Positions 2,986 through 27,451 of a stretch of 64,000 bases of DNA are shown piece by piece. The notes beneath the pieces were generated by a model. It searched no databases. It saw nothing but the letters and a program-made list of their open reading frames with translations, and was not told the DNA's origin. This DNA is from an uncultured Acidobacteriota bacterium. GTDB lineage: Bacteria > Acidobacteriota > Vicinamibacteria > Fen-336. Location of the stretch: the NCBI GenBank assembly GCA_963729875.1, contig CAVSPR010000006.1, forward strand, positions 121,368 through 185,367, written 5' to 3'. Position 1 is the first letter of the stretch, and each line of letters starts with the position of its first letter. Both the position numbers and the translations under genes were made by a program.

Positions 2986-3315
2986 TCAGTCGAGGCCGAG
3001 CCACCGCCTCAGGCCGTCGTCGACGGCTTCGAGCTCCCGAGGATCGCACTCCCCGATCTCCCCGCTGATCGCGGCGCGCGGCACGCTGACGATCTTGTCG
3101 ATCATCACCTGCGAGACACCCTTGAGGCCCGTCCGGGGCCCGGGGGGCAGGGTGAGGCGAAACAGGGGAGCATCCACGCAATCGGAGGTGATCGGGCAGA
3201 CCGTGAGGCTGGCGTGCGTCGGGTTGAACAGGTCCGACTGCACGACCAGCGCCGGCCGGGGCTTGCCGGTGTAGGCGCCGCGCGCCGCGACGACGACGAT
3301 GGCGCCCCGTTTCAT
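2986..3315 (-). CDS. mazF: PemK/MazF-family endoribonuclease toxin
   Basis: MKRGAIVVV...GKPRPALVVQSD...VCPITS...MIDKIVSV; ATGA overlap with the upstream antitoxin. Confidence 0.9.
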   Translation of the reverse strand: MKRGAIVVVAARGAYTGKPRPALVVQSDLFNPTHASLTVCPITSDCVDAPLFRLTLPPGPRTGLKGVSQVMIDKIVSVPRAAISGEIGECDPRELEAVDDGLRRWLGLD

Positions 3316-3578
3316 TTCCAGCCCCGGTCGTCCGCGACCACGGCGACGAGGGCGAGCGCCTCGCTCTCCGAGACGCGGCCGCTGACGAGCAACGACTGAC
3401 GGCGAGCCTCGCGAGCCGGATCCTCCGGGGCCGGACCTCCGCCGAAGGCGCCTTGCAGCACGTCTCGCAGGACGGCGCTCTTCGTCCGGCGCCGGCGGCG
3501 GGCCTCGCTCTCGATGCGGCGGTCGAGGTCGGACGGCACGCGAAGGGTCAAGACGGTGGACCTCTGTGGGCGGGGCAT
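3312..3578 (-). CDS. ribbon-helix-helix (CopG-like) antitoxin, MazE-like
   Basis: VLTLRVPSDLDRRIESEARRRRRTKSAVLRDVL RHH pattern; C-terminal EARRQSLLVS; translationally coupled to mazF; TATACT -10 at 3600-3605. Confidence 0.85.
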   Translation of the reverse strand: MPRPQRSTVLTLRVPSDLDRRIESEARRRRRTKSAVLRDVLQGAFGGGPAPEDPAREARRQSLLVSGRVSESEALALVAVVADDRGWK

Positions 3579-14603: not shown

Positions 14604-15674
14604 ATGAGCGCTTCGGGGTCGCGAGGTCCGTCGTGGGCCGTCCTGGCCGGCCTCGCACTCGTGCTGGCCGGGTGCGCGACGTCTTCTTCGACCAAGAGCC
14701 CGTCCCTCCCTCAACCCCCCCAGCCGCCGTCCCCGCCCTCGGTCCCGAGCCCCACCTCGCCCTCGGCGACGAAGCCCGAGGCCAAGGGAGAGAAGCAGGG
14801 CGAGAAGGGCGCCACCCAAGGGGAAAAAGGACAGCAAGGGGAGAAAGGCGCCACGCAGGGCGAGAAGGGGCAGCAAGGCGAAAAGGGAGAGCAGGGACAG
14901 CAAGGCGGCGAGGGTCCGAAAACGGGACAGGGCGGAAAGGCGGGCGGGCAATCCCAGGCCAAGGCTGAAGGCGGGGACAAGAGTGCCACCGGTGGAGGAC
15001 AGGCCGGAGCCGCCTCGGCGCCCGGGGAAGGGACGGGTGGCGGAGGAGCGACGACACCCGACGAGCAGCGCGACGCCCTGGACGGGCAGCTCCAGACGTC
15101 GATGACCGAGTTCGACCGGATGCTCCTGAAGGAGCAGAAGGCCCTCGAGGAGAAGCAGCGCAAGGACCCGCTGCCAGACCGCAGCGGCGAGGGCTCGGGC
15201 GGCGCGGCGGCCGGCGCTGGCGGCGCGGGAGGAACGGGGTCGGGCGGAGCGAAGGACGACCGCACGCCGGCCGAACGACGCGCGGACGCCGAAGCGGAGG
15301 CGGCCGAGAAGCAGGCGAAGGCCGGCGCGGCCGGCGAGTCCGGAAAACCCGGTGGTGAGGCCGGAAAGGCGGGCGAGCCTGGCAAGCCGGGAGACGCCGC
15401 CCCGCCCGCGGTCGACACCGCGACCGGGGGCTCCCCCGACGCCGGGCAGCTCGAGGGCGGGGCGACGGTGACCGCGCCGGTCGAGGGCGGGCCCGCCGGC
15501 CCCGGGACCGACTCGACCCCTGTCCCCCGGGACGTGGGAGACGGGAAGGACGACGACGTCGTGGCGCGCCAGCTCCGCGAGGCGGCCATGAAGGAGAAGG
15601 ACCCGGCGATCCGCGAGAAGCTGTGGGAGGAGTACCGGGAGTACAAGAAGAGCGCCGGAAAGGGCGGGAGCTGA
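14604..15674 (+). CDS. lipoprotein with collagen-like/low-complexity linkers and helical C-terminal domain
   Basis: Lipobox LAGC; GEKG-rich repeats; helix LDGQLQTSMTEFDRMLLKEQ; C-terminal DGKDDDVVARQLREAAMKEKDPAIREKLWEEYREYKK. Confidence 0.85.
   Translation: MSASGSRGPSWAVLAGLALVLAGCATSSSTKSPSLPQPPQPPSPPSVPSPTSPSATKPEAKGEKQGEKGATQGEKGQQGEKGATQGEKGQQGEKGEQGQQGGEGPKTGQGGKAGGQSQAKAEGGDKSATGGGQAGAASAPGEGTGGGGATTPDEQRDALDGQLQTSMTEFDRMLLKEQKALEEKQRKDPLPDRSGEGSGGAAAGAGGAGGTGSGGAKDDRTPAERRADAEAEAAEKQAKAGAAGESGKPGGEAGKAGEPGKPGDAAPPAVDTATGGSPDAGQLEGGATVTAPVEGGPAGPGTDSTPVPRDVGDGKDDDVVARQLREAAMKEKDPAIREKLWEEYREYKKSAGKGGS
14785..14915 (+). repeat. intragenic collagen-like GEKG(ATQ/QQ) tandem repeats
   Basis: GEKQ-GEKGATQ-GEKGQQ-GEKGATQ-GEKGQQ-GEKGEQ-GQQ with synonymous variation between units. 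Confidence 0.8.
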
Positions 15675-15683
15675 GGTGATGCG

Positions 15684-16898
15684 ATGACGAGGGGCTTCGG
15701 ATCGGCTCTGCTGGCGGCGCTGTGCCTGGTCGTGCCCGGGGCCGGCGCCGCCGCCGGGGGCGACGAGGCGCTGATCCTCGCGAAGGGCGAGATCCCCGAG
15801 GATCGCCTGATCGACGTGGCGATCGACCTCTTCTCGCCCGGGATCAACGAGGGCGACCCCTCGCCGCTCCTCAAGAAGGGCATCCGGGCCGCGGTGCGCA
15901 AGTCGGAGTCCCGCTACGTCCCGATCCACCTCCGCAACACGCTGCAGTCCAGCGGGCAGTGGGGTGCGGTCCGCGTCGTCCCCGGGGGAGCCGCGTGGGC
16001 CGAGATCCTCGTCACGGGCACGATCGCGAAGTCGAACGGCAAGGACCTCGAGGTCCGGATCACGGCGCGAGACGCGGCCGGCCGCGTCTGGGTGGAGCGC
16101 GACTACAAGCAGAAGGCGGACACCACCGCCTACGCGAAGGACCGGCCCGTCGACGGCCGGGACCCCTTCCAGGGGCTCTACAACCGGGTCGCGAACGACC
16201 TGGTGCAGGCGCGCGACAAGCGCAAGCCGGCGGAGCTCACGGCGGCGAAGGAAGTGGCGCGCCTGCGCTTCGCCGCGAGCATGGCCCCCGATCCCTACGC
16301 GGCCTACGTGGCCACCGACAAGAAGGGCCGCAGCCGCGTGGAGCGGCTCCCGGCCCAGGACGACCCGGTGATGGCCCGCATCACGGCGATCCGGGACCGC
16401 GACCAGATGTTCGTGGACACCCTCAACGAGTACTACGCCGACTTCTACGCCCGCATGGACAAGCCGTACGACGACTGGCGGGCCTACAGCTACACGGAGC
16501 AGGTCGCGCTCGACTCGATCAACCGCGCCTCGACGCTCAAGAAGATCCTGGGGGGCATCGCGATCCTGGGGGGCATCCTGATGGACCCGCAGAACGACCA
16601 TGGCGTCAAGGACATCCTGATCCTCGGGGGCATCGCCGCGGTCCAGGCCGGCTTCGAGGACGGCAAGGAGGGCGGGATCCACAAGGCCGCCCTCACCGAG
16701 CTCGCGGACTCGTTCGAGGGCGAAGTGACGCCTCTCCTGGTGGACGTGGACGGCAAGGTGGTGCAGCTCACCGGCTCGGCGGAAACGCAGTTCGCCCAGT
16801 GGCGCCAGCTGCTGAAGGACATCGTGGCCACGGACGCCCCCCTGCCCGCGGACATCAACCTCGTCCCGATGGCGCCCGCGGAGACCGTGCAGCCCTGA
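15684..16898 (+). CDS. exported hypothetical protein (404 aa)
   Basis: Signal peptide; GAGG SD; VRKSESRYVPIHLRNTLQSSGQWGAVRVVP; Gly-rich hydrophobic segment ILGGIAILGGIL; QFAQWRQLL near the C-terminus. Confidence 0.85.
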   Translation: MTRGFGSALLAALCLVVPGAGAAAGGDEALILAKGEIPEDRLIDVAIDLFSPGINEGDPSPLLKKGIRAAVRKSESRYVPIHLRNTLQSSGQWGAVRVVPGGAAWAEILVTGTIAKSNGKDLEVRITARDAAGRVWVERDYKQKADTTAYAKDRPVDGRDPFQGLYNRVANDLVQARDKRKPAELTAAKEVARLRFAASMAPDPYAAYVATDKKGRSRVERLPAQDDPVMARITAIRDRDQMFVDTLNEYYADFYARMDKPYDDWRAYSYTEQVALDSINRASTLKKILGGIAILGGILMDPQNDHGVKDILILGGIAAVQAGFEDGKEGGIHKAALTELADSFEGEVTPLLVDVDGKVVQLTGSAETQFAQWRQLLKDIVATDAPLPADINLVPMAPAETVQP

Positions 16899-16914: not shown

Positions 16915-18730
16915 ATGAGCGTCCCCGAGCCCGGGCTCGAGATCCTTCCGGGACTGACCCTCCTCCGACCCCTCGGCCGGGGGGGCATGGGGGAGGCGTG
17001 GCTCGCCCACGACGCCGGGCGGGGCGAGGACGTGGTGGCCAAGGTGCTGCCCGCGGACGCGTCGCCGGACCGGGTCGCGCTGCTGCGGCGCGAGGCCCGC
17101 CTCGTGCGCAAGCTGCAGCACCCGCGCATCGTCCCCGTCTACGGCTTCCGCAGCGGGGAGGCGGCGAGCGCCGTCACGCTGCGCCACATGCGAGGCGGGG
17201 ACGCCTCGCGCCGGCGGGGCGCGACACCACTCGAGGTGGTCCGGCTGGGCCGGGACGTGGCCGACGCCCTCGAGTACCTGCACGGCCTCGGCGTCGTGCA
17301 CCGCGACGTGAAGCCGTCGAACGTCCTCCTCGACGAGGAGGGGCGCGCCCACCTCGCCGACTTCGGCATCGCCGCCGTGCTCGAAGGGGGCGAGGAGGAC
17401 GGCGTGGTGCTGCGGGGAGGGGGATCCCGCGCCAGCATGAGCCCCCAGCAGAGGGCGGGTGCTTCGCCGGCGCCCGCGGACGACCTGTACGCCCTCGGCG
17501 CGCTGCTGTACGAGCTGCTGTCCGGCCGCCCGCCGTTCCCGGCAGAGGCGACCGACGCGGAGTTCCTCGCGCGCGACCCGCCGCCCGTGGCGTCGCCCTT
17601 TCCCGTGCCGGAGTCGCTCCGTGCCCTGGTGGCCGCGCTCCTGGCCCGGTCGCCGGAGGGCCGCCCGCCGTCCGCCGGGGCCGTGAAGGAAGCGCTCGAC
17701 GCGATCGGGTCGCAGCTCGACCGGTCGCCGGCGGCGCCCGTCCGCCCGCCGGTCGCGCTTCACCCTCCGCCTCGCGCGAGCGAAGGGGGCATCTCCGCGC
17801 GCGGGCTCGAGAACCGCCTGGAGCGCCTGCGGTCCCGTCCCCGGACCGGTCTGTTGCCGGGCCAGGTGACGCTTCTGATTGGCCTCGCCGTGGCCGCTCT
17901 CGTGACCGTCGTGTGGCTGCCCCGCTGGGCCCAGGCGCCGACGGCGCCGCCACCCGCGGCGACGCCGTCGGTCGCGCGAGCCGCCCGTCGCGCCTGCGCC
18001 GGCGGTCACGCCCGCCCCGGCCGAGGCCGCGCCGGACCCGCCCGCCGAATCTCCCGCGGTCGCGGCGCCGGTCCCGTCGCGTCCGACCCCGGCCCCGCGC
18101 GTGCCGCCCGCGAGTCTCCTGGCGTCGGCCCCGGCGGTGGCTCCCGTACCCCCGCCCCTGCCCACGCCGGACCGGCAGGCCGAGACGCAGGCCCTCGCCG
18201 GCCACCGCGAGTCGGGCCGCGCCCTCGAGGAGAAGGAAGAGTGGCGGGGCGCCCTCGCCGAGTACGAGGCGGCCCTGGCGGTGGACCCGTTCGTCGCGTT
18301 CGCGGTGGAGGGCAAGGCGCGCGCGGCGGCCCGCGCCGCTCTCGCGGAGGCGCTCGCATTCCACGTCGCGAACCCGCACCGGCTCGCGACCGAGGCCGTG
18401 GGCCGAGAGGCGGCGGTGCTTCTCGAGCGGGCGCGCGACGTCGAGGCGCCGGGGCCGCGCCACCGCGCGCAGGTCGCCGCCCTGGAGGGTGCGCTCGCCC
18501 GGGCCCGCGTGCCCGTCGCGGTCGTCCTCGAGTCGGATGGTCTGACCGAGATCGTGCTGAGCCGGATCGGCCGGCTCGGCACGCTGACGCGCCGCACCGT
18601 CGAGCTGCGGCCGGGGACGTACACGATCGTGGGCTCGAGGCGCGGCTATCGTGACGTGCGGCGTCAGCTCACCGTGGCACCGGGCGGCCCCGCTCCCGTC
18701 GTGAGCGTCCGCTGCGAGGAGGCCATCTGA
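16915..18730 (+). CDS. membrane Ser/Thr kinase with Pro-rich linker, TPR-like helices and C-terminal PEGA-like beta domain; apparent frameshift near 17975
   Basis: LGRGGMGEAW, VAK, HRDVKPSN, DFG; TM LLIGLAVAALVTVVWLP. Sensible sequence continues in the +1 frame (EPPVAPAPAV...GSRRGYRDVR...CEEAI*). Confidence 0.85.
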
Positions 18731-20991
18731 GCACCGTTCGCGTCGAGGAAAGCGGGCACGCCCGGGACCTCGGGCCCACCGAGTTTCCCGTCCCGCTCGG
18801 TGGTCCCGGCTCGGTCGTCCCGGTGGCTTCGAGCGCGGGTCCCCTCGCGTGGCTCGGCCTCGCGGACGGAGACGTCTTCGTCCAGCCGACGCCGGGAAGC
18901 GCCGTCCAGTGCAACGGCATCCGCCTCTCCGCCTCGCACTGGCTCCGCGACGGGGACGTCCTGCGGCTGGGGCCCACCCGCGTGGAGGTCCGGCTCACCG
19001 GCGACGTGCTGCGCCTCGTCGTCGAGACGCTCACGGAGACGAACCCGACCGAGCCCCCCGTCGTCCTCGTGCCGCCGCCGCGGGACGAGCGCCTGCGGGC
19101 GGACGAAGGGCCCGGCCCGACGATCACGCCGATCGGCTACACGCCGCGGCCGGTCGGCAGGAAGGCCGCGTCCCGGCGGCGCGTGAGCCTCGGACGCCTC
19201 GCGCTCGTCGCCCTGCTGGTCGTCGCCGGCGTGGCCGTCGCCCTGCTCTCCCGGGTGGCGGCGGTGGGGGTCGCGGTCGAGCCAACCCCCGAGACGGTTG
19301 CCTTGCGCGGCCGCTGGCCCGCGCTTCGCCTGGGCTCCCGCTTCCTGGCCTTCCCGGGCCCGTACACGCTCGTGGCGGAGAAGGCCGGCTACCGGCGGCT
19401 CGAGGCGGCGGTCGAGGTGACGGGCGAGCCGGGGCAGACCCTGCGGCAAGCCCTCGTGCCACTGCCCGGTCGGCTGACCGTGGACACGGGCGGAGTTGCC
19501 GGCGCGGAAGTGGCGATCGACGAGGCCGTGAGAGGGAGCACCCCGCTCGCCGCGCTCGAAGTGGAGGCGGGGGAGCGCGAGGTCCGGGTGCGCGCCCCGG
19601 GCTACGAGGAGTACCGCTCGCGCGTCGCGGTCGAGGGCCGTGGCGTCGAGCAAACGCTCGCGGTCGCGCTCGTCGCCCTTCCCACCCCCGAGGTCAGGCC
19701 GACCCCGGCGCCGCCGCCCGCCCCGGGGGTCCTCGTGGTGACGAGCGAACCGGCGGGAGCCCGCGTGAGCGTTGACGGCGCCGACATCGGCGAGACGCCC
19801 CTCGAGGTCCGGCTCGAGGCGGGGAAGCCGCACGCCGTGCGCGTCGCCAAGCCGGGCCACGACGACGCGGAGCTCACCGTGCAGCTGCGCGCCGGGGTGA
19901 GGCACGAGGAGGCGGTACGGCTGCAGCCGCAGCTCGGAGAGGTCCGCTTCGCCGCGCGCCCGCCCGACGCGGAGCTCCTGGTGAACGGGGAGCCGAGGGG
20001 CCGCGCCGACCAGACGCTCCGTCTCCTCGCCGTGCCGCACGAGATCGAGATCCGCCGCGAGGGCTACGAGGCCGTGAAGCAGGTGGTCACGCCGCGGCCG
20101 GGGTTCCCGCAGACGGTGAGCGTCGCCCTCAAGAGCCAGGCCCAGGTCCGCGAGGAGAAGACGCCCCGCGTGGCGCGCTCGCCGGAGGGCCACGAGCTGC
20201 GGCTCGTCGACGGCGGGGCATTCAAGCTGGGCGCGTCCCGGCGCGAGCCGGGGCGGCGGGCGAACGAGCCGCTGCGCGACGTCGTCCTCGCCCGCCCGTT
20301 CTACGTGGCGACGCGCGAGGTCTCGAACCTGCAGTTCCGCCGCTTCGAGGCGAGCCACTCGTCCGGGCGGGTGGGAGCGGAGAGCCTCGACGTGGACGAC
20401 CAGCCGGTGGTGCGCGTGAGCTGGCAGCAGGCCGCCGCCTACTGCAACTGGCTGAGCCAGCGCGAGGGCCTGCCGCCCGCCTACGTCCAGAGGGACGGCC
20501 GCCTTGCGCCGGCGGTGCCAGCGACGACGGGCTACCGGCTGCCGACGGAGGCGGAGTGGGAGAGGGTGGCCCGCTACCCCGACACCCGCTCGGCGCTCAA
20601 GTACCCGTGGGGGCAGGCGCTCCCCGTGCCCCCGGGAGCCGGGAACTACGCCGACGCGAAGGCGAAGGGCCTGGTGGCGCTGGTGCTCGACGGCTACGAC
20701 GACGGCTACGCGACGACGGCGCCCGTGCAGGGCTTCCCCGCGAACCCCCTCGGCTTCCTGAACCTGGGGGGCAACGTCGCGGAGTGGGCGCACGACCTGT
20801 ACACGATCACGCCCTCGGTCGAGGGCCAGCCCGCGCGCGACCCGGTGGGGCCGGCGGAGGGCGAGTACCATGTCATCCGCGGCGCGTCGTGGATGCACGC
20901 CACGGTGACGGAGCTGCGCCTGAGCTACCGGGACTACGGCAAGGACCCGCGACCGGACGTGGGCTTCCGCGTCGCGCGCTACGCCGAGTGA
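18727..20991 (+). CDS. FHA-like - TM - PEGA repeats - FGE-sulfatase (SUMF1) domain protein (probable CTG start)
   Basis: CTGA overlap with the kinase stop and GAGGAGG SD; CNGIRL...LRDGDVLRLG FHA-like; TM; PEGA motifs (VTSEPAGARVSVDG...GETP); PVVRVSWQQAAAYCNWLS, RLPTEAEWE, GNVAEW, VIRGASW, GFRVAR. Confidence 0.88.
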   Translation: MSTVRVEESGHARDLGPTEFPVPLGGPGSVVPVASSAGPLAWLGLADGDVFVQPTPGSAVQCNGIRLSASHWLRDGDVLRLGPTRVEVRLTGDVLRLVVETLTETNPTEPPVVLVPPPRDERLRADEGPGPTITPIGYTPRPVGRKAASRRRVSLGRLALVALLVVAGVAVALLSRVAAVGVAVEPTPETVALRGRWPALRLGSRFLAFPGPYTLVAEKAGYRRLEAAVEVTGEPGQTLRQALVPLPGRLTVDTGGVAGAEVAIDEAVRGSTPLAALEVEAGEREVRVRAPGYEEYRSRVAVEGRGVEQTLAVALVALPTPEVRPTPAPPPAPGVLVVTSEPAGARVSVDGADIGETPLEVRLEAGKPHAVRVAKPGHDDAELTVQLRAGVRHEEAVRLQPQLGEVRFAARPPDAELLVNGEPRGRADQTLRLLAVPHEIEIRREGYEAVKQVVTPRPGFPQTVSVALKSQAQVREEKTPRVARSPEGHELRLVDGGAFKLGASRREPGRRANEPLRDVVLARPFYVATREVSNLQFRRFEASHSSGRVGAESLDVDDQPVVRVSWQQAAAYCNWLSQREGLPPAYVQRDGRLAPAVPATTGYRLPTEAEWERVARYPDTRSALKYPWGQALPVPPGAGNYADAKAKGLVALVLDGYDDGYATTAPVQGFPANPLGFLNLGGNVAEWAHDLYTITPSVEGQPARDPVGPAEGEYHVIRGASWMHATVTELRLSYRDYGKDPRPDVGFRVARYAE

Positions 20992-21008: not shown

Positions 21009-21224
21009 ATGAGGAGTCTCGTCCGAGCGCTCCTGCTGGGCCTCGCCGCGGTGGCGGCGGCCGCCGTCGCCGGCGACCAGGCGGCGCCACAGGTCCCGCC
21101 CCCGCCCGTGGCGCCGGGCCCCGCGGCGACGCCCGCCCCCGCTCCCCAGGGCGACGTCGAGGACTTCGTCCCTTCCGAGAAGGTGAGCGCGGACGACGCG
21201 GTCGCCTTTCCGGTGGACATCTAG
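21009..21224 (+). CDS. small exported Pro-rich protein with acidic C-terminal motif
   Basis: GGAGG SD; signal peptide; ends DVEDFVPSEKVSADDAVAFPVDI. Confidence 0.8.
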   Translation: MRSLVRALLLGLAAVAAAAVAGDQAAPQVPPPPVAPGPAATPAPAPQGDVEDFVPSEKVSADDAVAFPVDI

Positions 21225-21234
21225 GAGAAAGCGC

Positions 21235-22029
21235 ATGCGCAAGCTCCACGTGGACGACCTCGTCTTCCAGGTGGCGACGCTCGTCCTCTCGTTCCTGATC
21301 ATGCACGTGCCGTACACGCTCGTGGTGCGCCCCAACGCCCGGGCCGTCCTCGAGGAGCAGGCCCGGCAGATGCGGACGAACCCCGAGTACGTCCAGGAGC
21401 GCTCCTGGTGGGTCATCATCAAGGACCCCGAGCAGGAGTGGGAGTTCATCCTGTGCCTGTGGGCGCTCGCCATCATGGGCGCCAAGTGGCGCTCCAGCTC
21501 GCGCGAGCGGCGGCTCCTCGAGAGCGACCTCGTGCCGGTCTCTCCCGGCGCCCGCATCCTGCCCGAGGACGCCCGGGAGTACGCCCGGCAGGTCCAGGCG
21601 CTGCCCGACGCCGACCGCCGGCTGCTCCTGCCGCGCACCGCCCTCGCCGCCCTCAACCGCTTCCGGGCCACGCGCAGCATCCAGGACGCCTCGTCCACCG
21701 CGCGCGAGGTGTGCGCGGCGGAGTCGGACCGGCTCGACTCGGAGCTCGCCATGATCCGATACATCGCCTGGGCGATCCCCTCGATCGGGTTCATCGGCAC
21801 CGTGCGCGGCATCGGCGACGCGCTCACCCAGGCCCACCGCGCGGTGCAGGGGGACATCTCGGGCGTCACCGAGGCCCTCGGGGTGGCCTTCAACTCCACC
21901 TTCATCGCGCTGCTGCTGAGCCTGCTGCTGATGTTCGTGCTGCACCAGCTGCAGCTCAAGCACGAGCGCCAGGTGCTCGACACGGAGAGCTACGTGGACG
22001 AGCGGCTCCTCGCGAACCTGCAGGCCTGA
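21235..22029 (+). CDS. MotA/TolQ/ExbB proton channel family protein
   Basis: AIPSIGFIGTVRGI and ALGVAFNSTFIALLL channel helices plus two N-terminal hydrophobic segments. Confidence 0.92.
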   Translation: MRKLHVDDLVFQVATLVLSFLIMHVPYTLVVRPNARAVLEEQARQMRTNPEYVQERSWWVIIKDPEQEWEFILCLWALAIMGAKWRSSSRERRLLESDLVPVSPGARILPEDAREYARQVQALPDADRRLLLPRTALAALNRFRATRSIQDASSTAREVCAAESDRLDSELAMIRYIAWAIPSIGFIGTVRGIGDALTQAHRAVQGDISGVTEALGVAFNSTFIALLLSLLLMFVLHQLQLKHERQVLDTESYVDERLLANLQA

Positions 22030-22036
22030 GGGCCCC

Positions 22037-23440
22037 TTGTCGCGCGCCCTCGCCCTCGACGTCAGCGACGGCGGCCTCCTCGGGCTGGCCGAAGGCGGGG
22101 CCGTCCTCGGCCCGAGCCCCGGGATGGCACTCGTCGAGGGCGCCCAGCCGCTCTTCGGCGAGGAGGCGCGGCGGCGCTGCCGTCTCAGCCCGCGGCTCGT
22201 GGCGAGCGACTGCTGGGCGCGCCTCGACGGCGAGCCGCTCGGCCCGCCGTTCCCGGAAGGCCTGTCCCGCGCCGACCTCGTCCACGCCCACCTCGAGAGC
22301 CTCTGGAACGGGGTCCGCCGCGGGACCGGCGAGGTCGTGCTGGCCGTGCCCGGCGTCCACGGCGAGGCGGAGCTCGGCCTCCTGCTCGGCATCGCGCAAG
22401 CGCTGGGAATGCCGGTCGTCGGAATGGTGGACGCGGCCGTCGCGGCCGCTGCCTCCGGGTTCCCCGGCGAGCGCCTCCTGCACGTGGACGTCGGTCTGCG
22501 CCACGCCGCGGTCACGGAGATCCGGCAGGGGACGCAGCTCGTGCGCGAGCGGGTGGCGCGCATCGACCGCTGGGGCCAGGACGAGATCGAGGACGCGGAG
22601 ATGCGGGGCGCCGCCGCGGCGTTCGTCCGGCAGGCGCGCTTCGACCCGCTCCACGACGCGGCCTCCGAGCAGGCCCTCTTCGACCGCCTCCCGGCCTGGC
22701 TCGCGACCCTCGCGAAGGAGGGCCGGGCGACGCTGTCGCTGCCCGCCGCCGGGCGCGAGGCCCCTTCGGTCGAGCTTCGACGGGAGGAGGCCTGGGACTG
22801 GACGGCCGTGTACGCGTCCGAGCTGTCGCAGCAGGTGAGCGTCCTGAAGCGGGCCGGCGAGCCGGCCACCGTCCTCGTCTCCGCCCACGCCGCGCGCCTG
22901 CCCGGCCTCGTCGAGCGGATCTCGGCGATCCGCGGCGTGGAGATCGCCCTCCTGCCGGTGCACGCGGCCGCGGCGGGCGCGCTGCGCGAGCGGGGCACGG
23001 TGCGCTCGCCGGCGGGAGCGCTGCGCTTCGTGACCCGGCTCCCGCGGCCGGAGGAGCCGGAAGGGACGGTCGGCGGCCAGGCGGTCATCCTCCCGCCGCG
23101 CCTCGCGGTGACGCCGGTGGCGGGGAGCGGCCGCCGTCCCACCCACGTGCTCCTCGGCTCCGAGGCGCGGGCGATCACGGCCGAGCCGCTCGTCCTCGGC
23201 ACGGCGCCGCCCGAGGGCGCCCGGGGGCTGCGCCTCTCGGGCGAGACGGCCGGCGTCTCCCGCGCGCACTGCCGGCTGTTCGAGGCGGGCGGGACCGTGG
23301 TCCTCGAGGACCTCAGCTCCTGGGGCACCTTCGTGAACGGCGAGCGCGTGGCCGGGCGTGCCGTGGTCGAGGCGGGGGACCGGATCCGCGTGGGCAGCCC
23401 CGGCCTCGAGCTGCTGCTCGTCGTGGCGGCGGAGGGCTAG
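22037..23440 (+). CDS. actin/Hsp70-like ATPase-fold protein with C-terminal FHA domain
   Basis: ALALDVSD, VVLAVPG, GMVDAAVAAA, LLHVDVG (degenerate ASKHA motifs); FHA GVSRAHC...LEDLSSWGTFVNG...GDRIRVG. Confidence 0.75.
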   Translation: MSRALALDVSDGGLLGLAEGGAVLGPSPGMALVEGAQPLFGEEARRRCRLSPRLVASDCWARLDGEPLGPPFPEGLSRADLVHAHLESLWNGVRRGTGEVVLAVPGVHGEAELGLLLGIAQALGMPVVGMVDAAVAAAASGFPGERLLHVDVGLRHAAVTEIRQGTQLVRERVARIDRWGQDEIEDAEMRGAAAAFVRQARFDPLHDAASEQALFDRLPAWLATLAKEGRATLSLPAAGREAPSVELRREEAWDWTAVYASELSQQVSVLKRAGEPATVLVSAHAARLPGLVERISAIRGVEIALLPVHAAAAGALRERGTVRSPAGALRFVTRLPRPEEPEGTVGGQAVILPPRLAVTPVAGSGRRPTHVLLGSEARAITAEPLVLGTAPPEGARGLRLSGETAGVSRAHCRLFEAGGTVVLEDLSSWGTFVNGERVAGRAVVEAGDRIRVGSPGLELLLVVAAEG

Positions 23441-23444
23441 CGAG

Positions 23445-24539
23445 ATGGCCCGCCGCCGCGAGACGAACATCTTCAGCCTCTCGCTCCTCGACTGCATCTG
23501 CTGCGGCTTCGGGGCGCTGATCCTGTTTCACATGATCATCGCCTCCCGCTCGGGGCGGCAGTACGAGAAGGTGACGCAGACGCTGCAGGCCGAGGTGGAC
23601 AAGCGGCAGAAGGAGGTGCTCGAGGGCCAGGAGCGACTCGTGGAGCTGCGCAACTCCTTCCGCGAGATCGAGGACAAGAAGGCGGCGGCCCAGGGGCTCT
23701 CGACGCGTATTCTCGAGACGCTCAAGCAGATCCAGGAGGAGCTCGCGACCTACGACGCGCAGACCGTCGCCCAGCGCGCCCACGTGAACAAGCTGAAGGC
23801 CGACCTCAAGTCGCTCGAGCAGGGGACGAAGCGCCTTTCCGGGGGGACGCCGAGCCAGGAGGTGCCGGGCCGCAACGTGCGTTCCTTCGTGGGCGACGGC
23901 GACCGGCAGTACCTGACCGGCCTCAAGGTGGGCGGCAAGCGCATCTTCATCCTCGTGGACGGCTCGGCCAGCATGCTGGCCGAGGACATCGTGAACGCGG
24001 TGCGGCGGCACCTCTTCCCGCCCGACAGCCGCCTGCGGGCGCCCAAGTGGCGCCACGCGGTGAAGGCCGTGGACTGGCTGGCCGCGCAGCTTCCCCGCGG
24101 GTCGCAGTACCAGCTCTACGTGTTCAACACGACCGCGCGGCCGGTGCTCGGCGGGACGGACGGGGTGTGGCTCGACGCGAAGGACGGCAAGACGCTGGAC
24201 CGGGCGGTGGCCGGGCTGGGAAAGACGGCGCCCGACGGGGGCACGAGCCTCCACCACGCCTTCGCCGCGGCGAAGGCCATGAGCCCGCCGCCCGACAACA
24301 TCATCCTCATCACCGACGGCCTGCCCACCCAGGGCGCGACGCCGCCCAGCCGGCGCACCGTCTCCGGCAAGGAGCGCCTCCGCCACTTCGACCGCGCCCT
24401 CGACGAGCTGCCGCGCGGCGTGCCCGTCAACATCATCCTGTTCCCGATGGAAGGGGACCCCATGGCCACGAGCGCGTTCTGGAAGCTGGCCATGGCGAGC
24501 CGGGGGTCCTTCATGACCCCCTCGAGCGCCTGGCCGTGA
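23445..24539 (+). CDS. N-terminal Asp-TM - coiled coil - VWA protein (1)
   Basis: RRRETNIFSLSLLDCICCGFGALILF; coiled coil; MIDAS LVDGSASM / GGTSL / ITDGLP. Confidence 0.88.
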   Translation: MARRRETNIFSLSLLDCICCGFGALILFHMIIASRSGRQYEKVTQTLQAEVDKRQKEVLEGQERLVELRNSFREIEDKKAAAQGLSTRILETLKQIQEELATYDAQTVAQRAHVNKLKADLKSLEQGTKRLSGGTPSQEVPGRNVRSFVGDGDRQYLTGLKVGGKRIFILVDGSASMLAEDIVNAVRRHLFPPDSRLRAPKWRHAVKAVDWLAAQLPRGSQYQLYVFNTTARPVLGGTDGVWLDAKDGKTLDRAVAGLGKTAPDGGTSLHHAFAAAKAMSPPPDNIILITDGLPTQGATPPSRRTVSGKERLRHFDRALDELPRGVPVNIILFPMEGDPMATSAFWKLAMASRGSFMTPSSAWP

Positions 24540-25549
24540 GGCGGCGGGAGCGGCGGCCGTTCGAGGTGTTCAGCCTCTCGTTCCTCGACGTCGTGTGCTG
24601 CGGCTTCGGGGCGATCATCCTGCTGTTCGTGCTCAACAAGATGGGGGAGCCGGCCGCGCTCGAGCGGGCGGAGCAGGACCTCTCGGGGCTGCTCGCGAAG
24701 CTCGAGGAGGAGCTCGCGGTCGTCCGGGGGGAGACGACCGTCCTCAACCGCAACCTGCGGGGCCGCGAGGAGCAGCTCTCGGAGGAGAGGCTCAAGGTGG
24801 CGCGCCTCCAGGGCGACCTGTCCAGGGTGCAGGGGCAGTTCGCGGCGAGCAAGGAGCTGTCCGAGGTGCAGGACATCATCGCGGGCCGGCTCCTCGCCGC
24901 CCAGCAGGAGCTCTCCGTGGAGATGAAGCGGCTGCAGGCGCAGCAGGAGGAGGTCTACCGGCGTCCGGTCGACGCCCCGGTGGGCGGCATCCCCGTGGAC
25001 AGCGAGTACATCATCTTCGTGATCGACACCTCGGGCAGCATGCAGCGCTTCGCGTGGCGGGCGATGCGGAAGAAGATGGAGGAGGTCCTGAACGCCTACC
25101 CCAAGGTGAAGGGGATGCAGATCCTGAACGACGAGGGCGTCTACATGTTCGGGCACTACGCGGGCAAGTGGATCCCCGACACGCCGGCAAGGCGCCAGGC
25201 CATCCGCGAGCGGCTCTCGGGCTGGAACGCCTTCAGCAACTCCTCGCCGGTCGAGGGCATCGAGATCGCGATCAAGACGTTCTGGTCGGCGGACAAGAAG
25301 ATCAGCATCTACTACTTCGGCGACGAGTTCACCGGCGACTCGATCGACGAGGTGCTCGACCAGGTCGACCGCCTGAACCGCCGCGACGCCTCCGGCCAGA
25401 GGAAGGTGCGCATCCACGCCGTCGGCTTCCCGACGCTCTTCTCGCAGTCGCAGTTCCCCGAGCACACCGGCACCCGCTTCTCGATGCTGATGCGCCTCCT
25501 CTGCGAGCGGAACGGCGGCGCCTTCGTCGGCCTCAACAGCACCGACTAG
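24536..25549 (+). CDS. N-terminal Asp-TM - coiled coil - VWA protein (2)
   Basis: GTGA overlap; FEVFSLSFLDVVCCGFGAIILLFVL; coiled coil; VIDTSGSM, FGDEF, RIHAVGF. Confidence 0.88.
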   Translation: MRRRERRPFEVFSLSFLDVVCCGFGAIILLFVLNKMGEPAALERAEQDLSGLLAKLEEELAVVRGETTVLNRNLRGREEQLSEERLKVARLQGDLSRVQGQFAASKELSEVQDIIAGRLLAAQQELSVEMKRLQAQQEEVYRRPVDAPVGGIPVDSEYIIFVIDTSGSMQRFAWRAMRKKMEEVLNAYPKVKGMQILNDEGVYMFGHYAGKWIPDTPARRQAIRERLSGWNAFSNSSPVEGIEIAIKTFWSADKKISIYYFGDEFTGDSIDEVLDQVDRLNRRDASGQRKVRIHAVGFPTLFSQSQFPEHTGTRFSMLMRLLCERNGGAFVGLNSTD

Positions 25550-26416: not shown

Positions 26417-26740
26417 ATGGGCTACGGAACCATCCGAATCAGTGACACCGCCCGCGGGACGCTCCGCCAGCTGGCCCGCGCCGAGGGCAAGTCGATGCTG
26501 GCCCTCGTGGACGAGGCGGTCGAGACCTTGCGTCGGCAACGCTTCCTGGAGCAGGTGAACGCTGCCTACGCGACCCTGCGCAGCGACCCCCGCGCCTGGG
26601 AGGAGATCGAGTCCGAGCGCCGCGACTGGGACGTCACCCTCGGCGACGGGCTGGTCGCCGAGGAGAGCCGGGCTCCCTACGGGAAGCGGGAACGTTCCGG
26701 GAGCGGATCGCGCGGGGGCCGGCGGGGAAAGCGATCGTGA
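26417..26740 (+). CDS. putative RHH antitoxin (MazE-like)
   Basis: TIRISDTARGTLRQLARAEGKSMLALVDEAVE; ERRDWDVTLGDGL; GTGA overlap with the toxin. Confidence 0.85.
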   Translation: MGYGTIRISDTARGTLRQLARAEGKSMLALVDEAVETLRRQRFLEQVNAAYATLRSDPRAWEEIESERRDWDVTLGDGLVAEESRAPYGKRERSGSGSRGGRRGKRS

Positions 26741-27078
26741 ACCCCCCGGCTCGAGGCGAGGTGTGGCTGGCCGAGCTCAGTCCGACGCGGGGCCATGAGC
26801 AGGCCGGTCGGCGACCGGTCCTCGTGGTGTCCGAGGACCTGTTCAACCGGGGTCCGGCGGGTCTCGTGATCGTGCTGCCGATGACCACGAGGTGGCGCGG
26901 CGTTCCGAGCCACGTGCCTCTCGATCCCCCGGAGGGCGGCGTCGAGGAGCGCTCGGCGGTGCTGTGCGAGGCCGTGCGGTCCGTCTCGGTCGAGCGCCTG
27001 ATCGAGCGGTGGGGCGCGGTCGGACGCCCGACGATGGCCGCCGTGGAAGACCGGCTGCGCATCCTGCTGCGACTCTGA
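26737..27078 (+). CDS. mazF: PemK/MazF-family toxin
   Basis: RGEVWLAELSPTRGHEQAGRRPVLVVS...VLPMTT...CEAVRSVS. Confidence 0.92.
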   Translation: MNPPARGEVWLAELSPTRGHEQAGRRPVLVVSEDLFNRGPAGLVIVLPMTTRWRGVPSHVPLDPPEGGVEERSAVLCEAVRSVSVERLIERWGAVGRPTMAAVEDRLRILLRL

Positions 27079-27121: not shown

Positions 27122-27451
27122 ATGACCGACGGGCGCCACGCCGTGGCCGAAGACGTGAGCCTGGAGTTGCACCGGGCGGTCGCGAAGCGCCTGCTCGAAG
27201 ACCCGGCCCTCGTCGAGCGGACGCGGGAGCGCGTAGCCGAGTGGCTGCGCGACGGCTCGGTCGCGAGGCCCTACGCCGAGGCGTGGCGCGACGTCCTGGC
27301 CGGTCCCGTCGAGGCCATCGCTCGCTTCCTGACGGACACGGGGGAGAAAGCGCGGCAGATGCGACAGACGTCCCCCTTCGCCGGCGTGCTCGACCCGAGG
27401 ACGCGCTGGTCCATCTGGCGGCGAGCGCGCGAAGGAGCGCACCGGCCGTGA
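27122..27451 (+). CDS. hypothetical antitoxin-like protein (partner of a nucleotidyltransferase)
   Basis: SLELHRAVAKRLLEDP...MRQTSPFAGVL; extended -10 TGCTAGACT ends 7 nt before the ATG. Confidence 0.7.
   Translation: MTDGRHAVAEDVSLELHRAVAKRLLEDPALVERTRERVAEWLRDGSVARPYAEAWRDVLAGPVEAIARFLTDTGEKARQMRQTSPFAGVLDPRTRWSIWRRAREGAHRP

Follow-up and report, generated by a model that had tools for sequence, protein, structure and literature searches.

The window, by which we mean the whole 64,000-nucleotide stretch of DNA that was analysed, carries an operon, g1–g9, that probably encodes a proton-driven motor of 5:1:1 (5:2) composition, in which a pentamer of the channel subunit g6 would surround the two Asp-bearing helices of g8 and g9 as an axle, and the MIDAS heads of these two proteins would grip a periplasmic partner. 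The idea that such a pair acts as a motor axle is not new here. It was published as the predicted TPH-vWA family by Williams-Jones et al. (2025; Mol Biol Evol msaf138, PMC12204202), where section 8 (Fig. 4c-d) describes, from synteny and AF3 models of an Idiomarina locus and as a prediction without experiments, a heterologous TPH-vWA pair as the dimer of a TolQ-like pentamer. To judge from its match to the features described in that section, the g8/g9 locus appears to be a member of this family. Since the motor core has been predicted in print, the locus alone is not a discovery; what the full operon supplies is a set of likely output parts and a candidate ligand, by which a motor known from prediction becomes a defined machine, open to knockout in a cultured marine bacterium. 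The literature searched, from which subscription papers were largely absent, contained no experimental test of a TPH-vWA motor, nor anything on the family beyond this one paper or on the wider operon. We infer assembly, ion flow, rotation, ligand and function of the motor from residues, domains, gene context and co-occurrence.

The two subunits of the pair are encoded back to back on the plus strand. Subunit 1 (g8, vWA1; 23445..24539) has 364 aa with Asp16, Cys20, a coiled coil at about residues 40–135 and a vWA domain, and subunit 2 (g9, vWA2; 24536..25549) has 337 aa with Asp18, Cys22, a coiled coil and a vWA domain; the GTG start of g9 overlaps the TGA stop of g8 in a shared GTGA. The Asp codons lie at 23490 and 24587, respectively, and these positions, like the coordinates and motifs that an earlier note on this DNA had given for both reading frames, proved correct when the sequence was read again. 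That note had also described a basic tail, a membrane Asp, a coiled coil and a vWA head in both proteins, and three kinds of evidence agree with this: a basic N-terminal tail is followed by the sole hydrophobic segment (residues 14–32 in each protein), the stalk residues 40–135 display a hydrophobic period of 3.5 residues in both alignments, and each protein has one Pfam VWA_2 match, at 3.5e-7 (above the cut-off) and 5.4e-5 (below it). The two proteins are paralogs from end to end (hhalign E 1.3e-36, 22% identity). Among about 8000 scored candidates for each, 5690 and 8000 relatives were found, which fall into 1459 clusters at 50% identity, and these numbers exclude a chance occurrence of the architecture. 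A search of the vWA1 profile against solved structures gave nothing beyond coiled-coil and weak vWA matches, the ESM Atlas returned solely unnamed or VWA_2 clusters, and a plasmid search gave no match. At one locus (L030:9989-12067) vWA1 and vWA2 are joined in a single frame of 693 aa, which is either a real fusion or an assembly error.

The proton-carrying aspartates of MotB (D32) and ExbD (D25) occupy a position equivalent to that of the membrane Asp in g8 and g9, and the conservation of this residue is central to the proposed mechanism. The first 80 loci were not used for counting the Asp or the Cys pair, as they had been found with a pattern that contained LD..CGFG and any such count would have been circular. 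In loci that were found by the vWA2 head alone, a set that shares two genomes with the first one and includes the unpublished G247, the Asp occurs in 24 of 24 vWA1 and 29 of 29 vWA2 N-termini (28 of the latter recognised by pattern and one by eye). It is likewise found in all 115 of the 150 listed representatives that possess the N-terminal segment, the other 35 being mostly truncated or fused. Thus, the Asp is invariant in sets that were chosen without the Asp motif. The tandem Cys pair that had been singled out as an unusual feature of both membrane segments is lineage-specific: its first Cys is present in a minority (2/24 and 10/29 in the head-found loci and 36/115 of the representatives), and only the second one, at Asp+4, is nearly invariant (110/115 representatives). 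Neither a conserved His nor an SHLS motif occurs in the helix of either subunit. An AxA site past the helix is rare (5/59 for vWA1 and 2/54 for vWA2), and these counts speak against a cleaved signal and for a retained helix, as the earlier note had assumed.

The metal-binding residues of the heads are equally well kept in alignments that mix both sets of loci; none of these residues was part of the scan pattern. Among 59 vWA1 sequences, the MIDAS is formed by D172 (57), S174 (59), S176 (59), T267 (57) and D291 (59), and in vWA2 D164, S166, S168, S236 and D263 were each found in 54 of 54. Since S236 of vWA2 aligns with T267 of vWA1 (hhalign), the second head carries Ser in place of Thr. The MIDAS, which had been listed as complete for the first head and as a DTSGS motif for the second, is therefore full in both, and each head has the DxSxS...T...D residues of an integrin I-like vWA, apart from this Ser in the second.

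The channel subunit is encoded by g6 (21235..22029, plus strand), a MotA/TolQ/ExbB-like protein of 264 aa (Pfam MotA_ExbB, 5.2e-14). Its residues T189 and T222 are invariant (33/33) and fall on threonines 145 and 178 of TolQ in a weak phmmer alignment (E 0.096), presumably the essential threonines of that protein; the same weak alignment places TolQ Glu 173 at Val217 of g6. A ring of threonines in the pentamer is named in PMC12204202. Other polar residues conserved in or near the membrane segments are H24 (31/33), D64, E66, E68, R191 and N220, and these family-specific positions could bear on gating or ion choice. A Pfam/NCBIfam scan of the operon revealed no exbD, tolR or motB gene (PF02472 gave no match at E 0.1), a Pfam scan of g8 and g9 revealed no ExbD, MotB or OmpA-like peptidoglycan-binding domain, and a MotB plug was not found in the genome (86% complete). 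Of the three MotA_ExbB genes in the genome, two adjoin ExbD and g6 has no ExbD neighbour; the three ExbD genes are placed on contigs other than that of the operon, next to ExbB/TolQ genes of their own. When a profile was built from the helix, none of the 43,968 ORFs in the genome matched it, nor did the N-termini of these three ExbD proteins, so that the kinship of the helix to ExbD proposed in the earlier note is not detectable by sequence. Because neither this profile nor Pfam gave a match, the likeness to ExbD rests on the position of the Asp and on gene context.

The tie between channel and pair is seen most clearly in co-occurrence. In the Gammaproteobacteria sample, vWA2 is present in 26/301 genomes, and the channel profile (in a count that left out G427) matched in 29/300, with 26 strong matches (E < 1e-59) and three weak ones that represent the sister family discussed below. 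The 26 vWA2 genomes and the 26 genomes with a close channel have 25 in common; in the channel-only genome, G235, vWA1 adjoins the channel at a contig end, and in G509 a vWA2 fragment occurs without a channel match. In 25 of 80 loci no channel gene is seen; 18 of these have g4 in place, and from them the channel gene has therefore left the operon. A relocated copy was found elsewhere in eight of nine genomes, including the unpublished G002 and also G005, where the channel is in two pieces, and none was found in G003. A mirror-tree comparison of 41 loci gave correlations of 0.91–0.92 for vWA with channel, 0.89–0.93 for vWA with g4 or g2, and 0.87–0.96 for all operon genes; since the first value is no higher than the second, it reflects co-inheritance and not contact. 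As a test of coevolution with the MotA-like protein, the comparison is therefore not specific. That g8 and g9 are the B subunits of the neighbouring channel is supported indirectly, by the Asp, the pore threonines, the lack of exbD/tolR and the co-occurrence, but not by any match of the helix to ExbD.

The remaining genes of the operon, all on the plus strand, mostly encode envelope proteins or proteins with signalling domains. The first operon gene in related loci, g1 (14604..15674), specifies a predicted lipoprotein with a LAGC lipobox-like motif, a long low-complexity linker and a short conserved C-terminal helical domain, and has no Pfam/NCBIfam match. An exported protein with a TolB-N/CsgG/FlgT/PelC-like domain is encoded by g2 (15684..16898; AF2 pLDDT 87, Foldseek); it is a lipoprotein in most relatives and has a long helical hairpin with a Gly/Ala-rich tip. 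Its model was aligned with VIA-align to the FlgT ring (Z 11.1, rmsd 4.0, 139 aligned), PelC (Z 10.3; 2.7, 110 aligned) and TolB (Z 10.2; 2.8, 102 aligned), and several proteins that share the fold predicted for g2 form rings, although a common fold alone shows no function. All 23 of 300 genomes with g2 also have vWA2. The product of g3 (16915..18730) is a Ser/Thr kinase (Pkinase, 3.8e-34) with a membrane helix and TPR-like and PEGA-like parts, of which the kinase part is optional in relatives. In the window, g3 is split over two frames with a break near 17985–18100, whereas it forms a single ORF of 661 aa with kinase and TPR in L132 and a single ORF in L133 as well; the break may be an assembly indel or real, since contigs that matched in this region did not bridge 17985–18100. 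A membrane-anchored stalk of PEGA repeats (5.5e-39) with an FGE-sulfatase (SUMF1-like) end (2.8e-42) is encoded by g4 (18823..20991), and g7 (22037..23440) encodes a cytoplasmic protein that combines an Hsp70-NBD (actin-like) fold (AF2 pLDDT 91; Foldseek matches to the DnaK/Hsp70 NBD at E ~1e-15) with an FHA domain (5.8e-10). Motif tallies show that the phosphate-loop glycines of g7 are poorly kept, and the protein is possibly a pseudo-ATPase.

Among the 48 loci whose upstream flank is complete, vWA2 is present in 48, the C-terminal part of g3 and g4 in 46 each, g7 in 45 (BLAST), g2 in 41, the kinase in 38 and the channel in 35. Two Verrucomicrobiota loci consist of just the channel, one g7-sized gene and the vWA pair, and one of these two genomes has g1–g4 elsewhere. 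A search for a sigma-70-like promoter found none, and terminator-like sites occurred at chance level. Downstream of pepE, at 26417–27078 of the window, an antitoxin and MazF/PemK-type-looking pair was recognised by eye, with a further short ORF at 27122–27451 and a second PemK-like frame, also read by eye, near 3000–3400.

A working mechanism can be outlined from these parts. The Asp helices of g8 and g9 would insert into the g6 pentamer as those of ExbD, TolR and MotB do in their channels, and the stalk of about 95 residues, which at 0.15 nm per residue would reach some 14 nm if fully extended, would raise the heads to the level of the cell wall or the outer membrane. There, in place of a wall-binding or TonB-binding domain, the heads would hold on to an acidic residue in another product of the operon, with Mg required for the contact, so that proton flow would exert force on an envelope assembly of the g2 lipoprotein and the g3/g4 PEGA stalks. 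Regulation from the cytoplasm would fall to the kinase and the Hsp70-FHA parts, both of them optional.

The distribution of the operon bears on its possible role. By record title, the order g1–g9 recurs in Acidobacteriota, Gammaproteobacteria, Betaproteobacteria, Kiritimatiellia, Spirochaetales and others, so that the class is widespread. Besides the gammaproteobacterial counts given above, vWA2 is present in 80/81 genomes of the family of G006 (Sediminihaliea sp. by title), a family that we take to be the Halieaceae, and the operon is retained in genomes of 1.7–1.8 Mb. Occurrence among the relatives of the window genome is patchy, with the system in 12/41 of them (6/16 among good-quality genomes) and in 4/201 genomes phylum-wide. 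Fixation in one family, even if kin are not independent, is more easily explained by a stable role in the envelope than by a defence island, and the motor most likely has a lasting task there, be it transport, secretion or remodelling, rather than one in phage defence. One genome (G372) contains two divergent full copies of the operon, C1 and C2 (L125, L126). A locus titled Klebsiella pneumoniae (L077) has operon proteins that resemble those of marine gammaproteobacterial loci and is possibly a mislabelled bin.

A sister system was noticed at L144:7494-16949 and L147:1897-15957 (G252, G488), with its channel also in L145 and L146. Its genes are ordered as a related channel (E ~1e-30), an FHA protein, a PP2C, two trypsin-FHA proteins, a single TPH-vWA and Ser/Thr kinases; the TPH-vWA keeps the Asp in a helix of LDLFAS/CALG type. 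This gene content suggests a homodimeric version that would be tied to phospho-signalling. Both systems are present in G488 (1.7 Mb).

Such a coupling of one TPH-vWA and its channel with PP2C, FHA, trypsin-FHA and kinase proteins could also mean that the pair in the window belongs to a Zorya-like sensor, in which the heads fix the axle in place and detect envelope damage or a ligand, and the pentamer relays the signal into the cell via the Hsp70-FHA protein and the kinase, with no mechanical work done outside. The kinase and FHA modules of the operon, a weak match of ZorA over the channel domain (7.5e-5) and the patchy occurrence among the relatives of the window genome point in this direction. 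However, the supposed signalling parts are dispensable, with the kinase lacking in 10/48 full loci and g7 in 3/48 (BLAST) and without a match in L118–L125, and the retention in 80/81 genomes of one family is unlike that of a defence island. Furthermore, g6, with its 264 aa, lacks a long tail, and PADLOC had no match for g2, g4, g7 and g9, which makes a sensor of this kind an unlikely explanation.

Poorer still are the prospects of a surface-motility machine like Agl-Glt or Gld, in which the FGE protein would serve as track or ring and focal adhesions would grip by means of the vWA heads. The AglQS heterodimer and the FHA-bearing GltG are precedents, as given in PMC11761067, and gliding requires the MIDAS of CglB according to PMC9946355; for the first of its vWA families, PMC12204202 raises gliding as a speculation. 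The g4 protein does resemble GldK (4.6e-28), yet its score of 98.7 bits lies far below the cut-off of 350, and the GltG model matched in the operon scan with 19 bits against 650, over the FHA part only. Besides, the operon has no outer-membrane barrel, TonB_C or Glt gene, and the heads are tethered to the inner membrane, unlike the surface lipoprotein CglB. Flagellin (1/5 of the carriers) and PilT (over the cut-off in 3/5) are neutral in this respect.

That the two vWA proteins serve by themselves as a membrane-anchored adhesin or scaffold, while the channel pairs with an ExbD/TolR protein encoded elsewhere, would agree with the lack of a sequence match between the helix and ExbD, with the separation of channel gene and pair in at least 18/80 loci and with the three ExbD genes elsewhere in the genome, but it is highly improbable, since a plain anchor has no use for an invariant membrane Asp in both paralogs, the ExbD genes adjoin their own ExbB/TolQ genes and the pair co-occurs nearly one to one with the g6 channel subfamily.

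If g6, g8 and g9 do form a motor, a candidate for what its heads hold is found in the same operon. Between g4 and g6, g5 (21009..21224, plus strand) encodes an exported micro-protein of 71 aa without a Pfam match, which has a variable disordered linker and ends in D-x-x-V-S-F-P-x-D-I-COOH. A search in which P, D/N and I/M were fixed and position −10 was left free placed g5 behind g4 in 74 of 75 locus rows (L067 and L133 being the same locus), with Asp (68) or Asn (6) at position −2 and Asp at −10 in 67/74. Just 73 of the 11,860 ORFs of 80 loci have an ending of this type, and they are mostly g5 itself; in several loci the protein consists of a signal-like helix and about 15 residues and nothing more. 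In a MIDAS, an acidic residue of the ligand completes the metal site, and by analogy with this chemistry g5 is a candidate ligand. The six Asn residues at −2 speak against the −2 Asp as the completing residue, and the tail could instead be received by the TPR, PEGA, FGE or g2 domains. A rather improbable further reading is that the two MIDAS heads grip the acidic tail of g5, which would act as a handle, sorting tag or gate and so couple rotation to an outer-membrane ring of the g2 lipoprotein and to the PEGA-FGE stalks. If true, this would add a new motor system that spans the envelope to Ton, Tol, Mot, Agl, Gld and Zorya, and would be a peptide-gripping core envelope machine that is near-universal in Halieaceae-type marine bacteria.

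It is useful to compare the proposed motor with systems that are better known. With MotAB and ZorAB it has in common the Asp on the B helix and, as predicted here, membership of the 5:2 motor family, but it differs from them in having no OmpA-like wall-binding domain, MotB plug, long ZorA tail or Zorya effectors. The AglRQS-Glt machinery of Myxococcus likewise employs two different B subunits, with an FHA protein nearby and a MIDAS vWA in the system; there, however, AglQ/S carry TolR-like domains and the vWA is a separate surface lipoprotein, CglB, and no Glt orthologs were found in the operon scan. ExbBD and TolQR resemble the system of the window in the MotA_ExbB channel with both threonines and in a partner with a basic tail and an Asp at the start of the helix, whereas the ExbD periplasmic domain is replaced here by a coiled coil and a vWA domain and there is no TonB/TolA gene. 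The closest likeness is to the predicted TPH-vWA family, which in the published section also has a heterologous vWA pair with an Asp-bearing N-terminal helix, a tolQ-like neighbour with conserved threonines and no tolR/exbD, and is reported there from Proteobacteria and Verrucomicrobia (PMC12204202). That section is silent on MIDAS conservation, lipoproteins and the PEGA-FGE, Hsp70-FHA, kinase and PxDI peptide genes. Among the matches listed for g8 and g9 there is no homolog that bears the name Idiomarina, and the present copy, unlike the Idiomarina query of that paper, comes from a genome that has Acidobacteriota as its closest named relatives.
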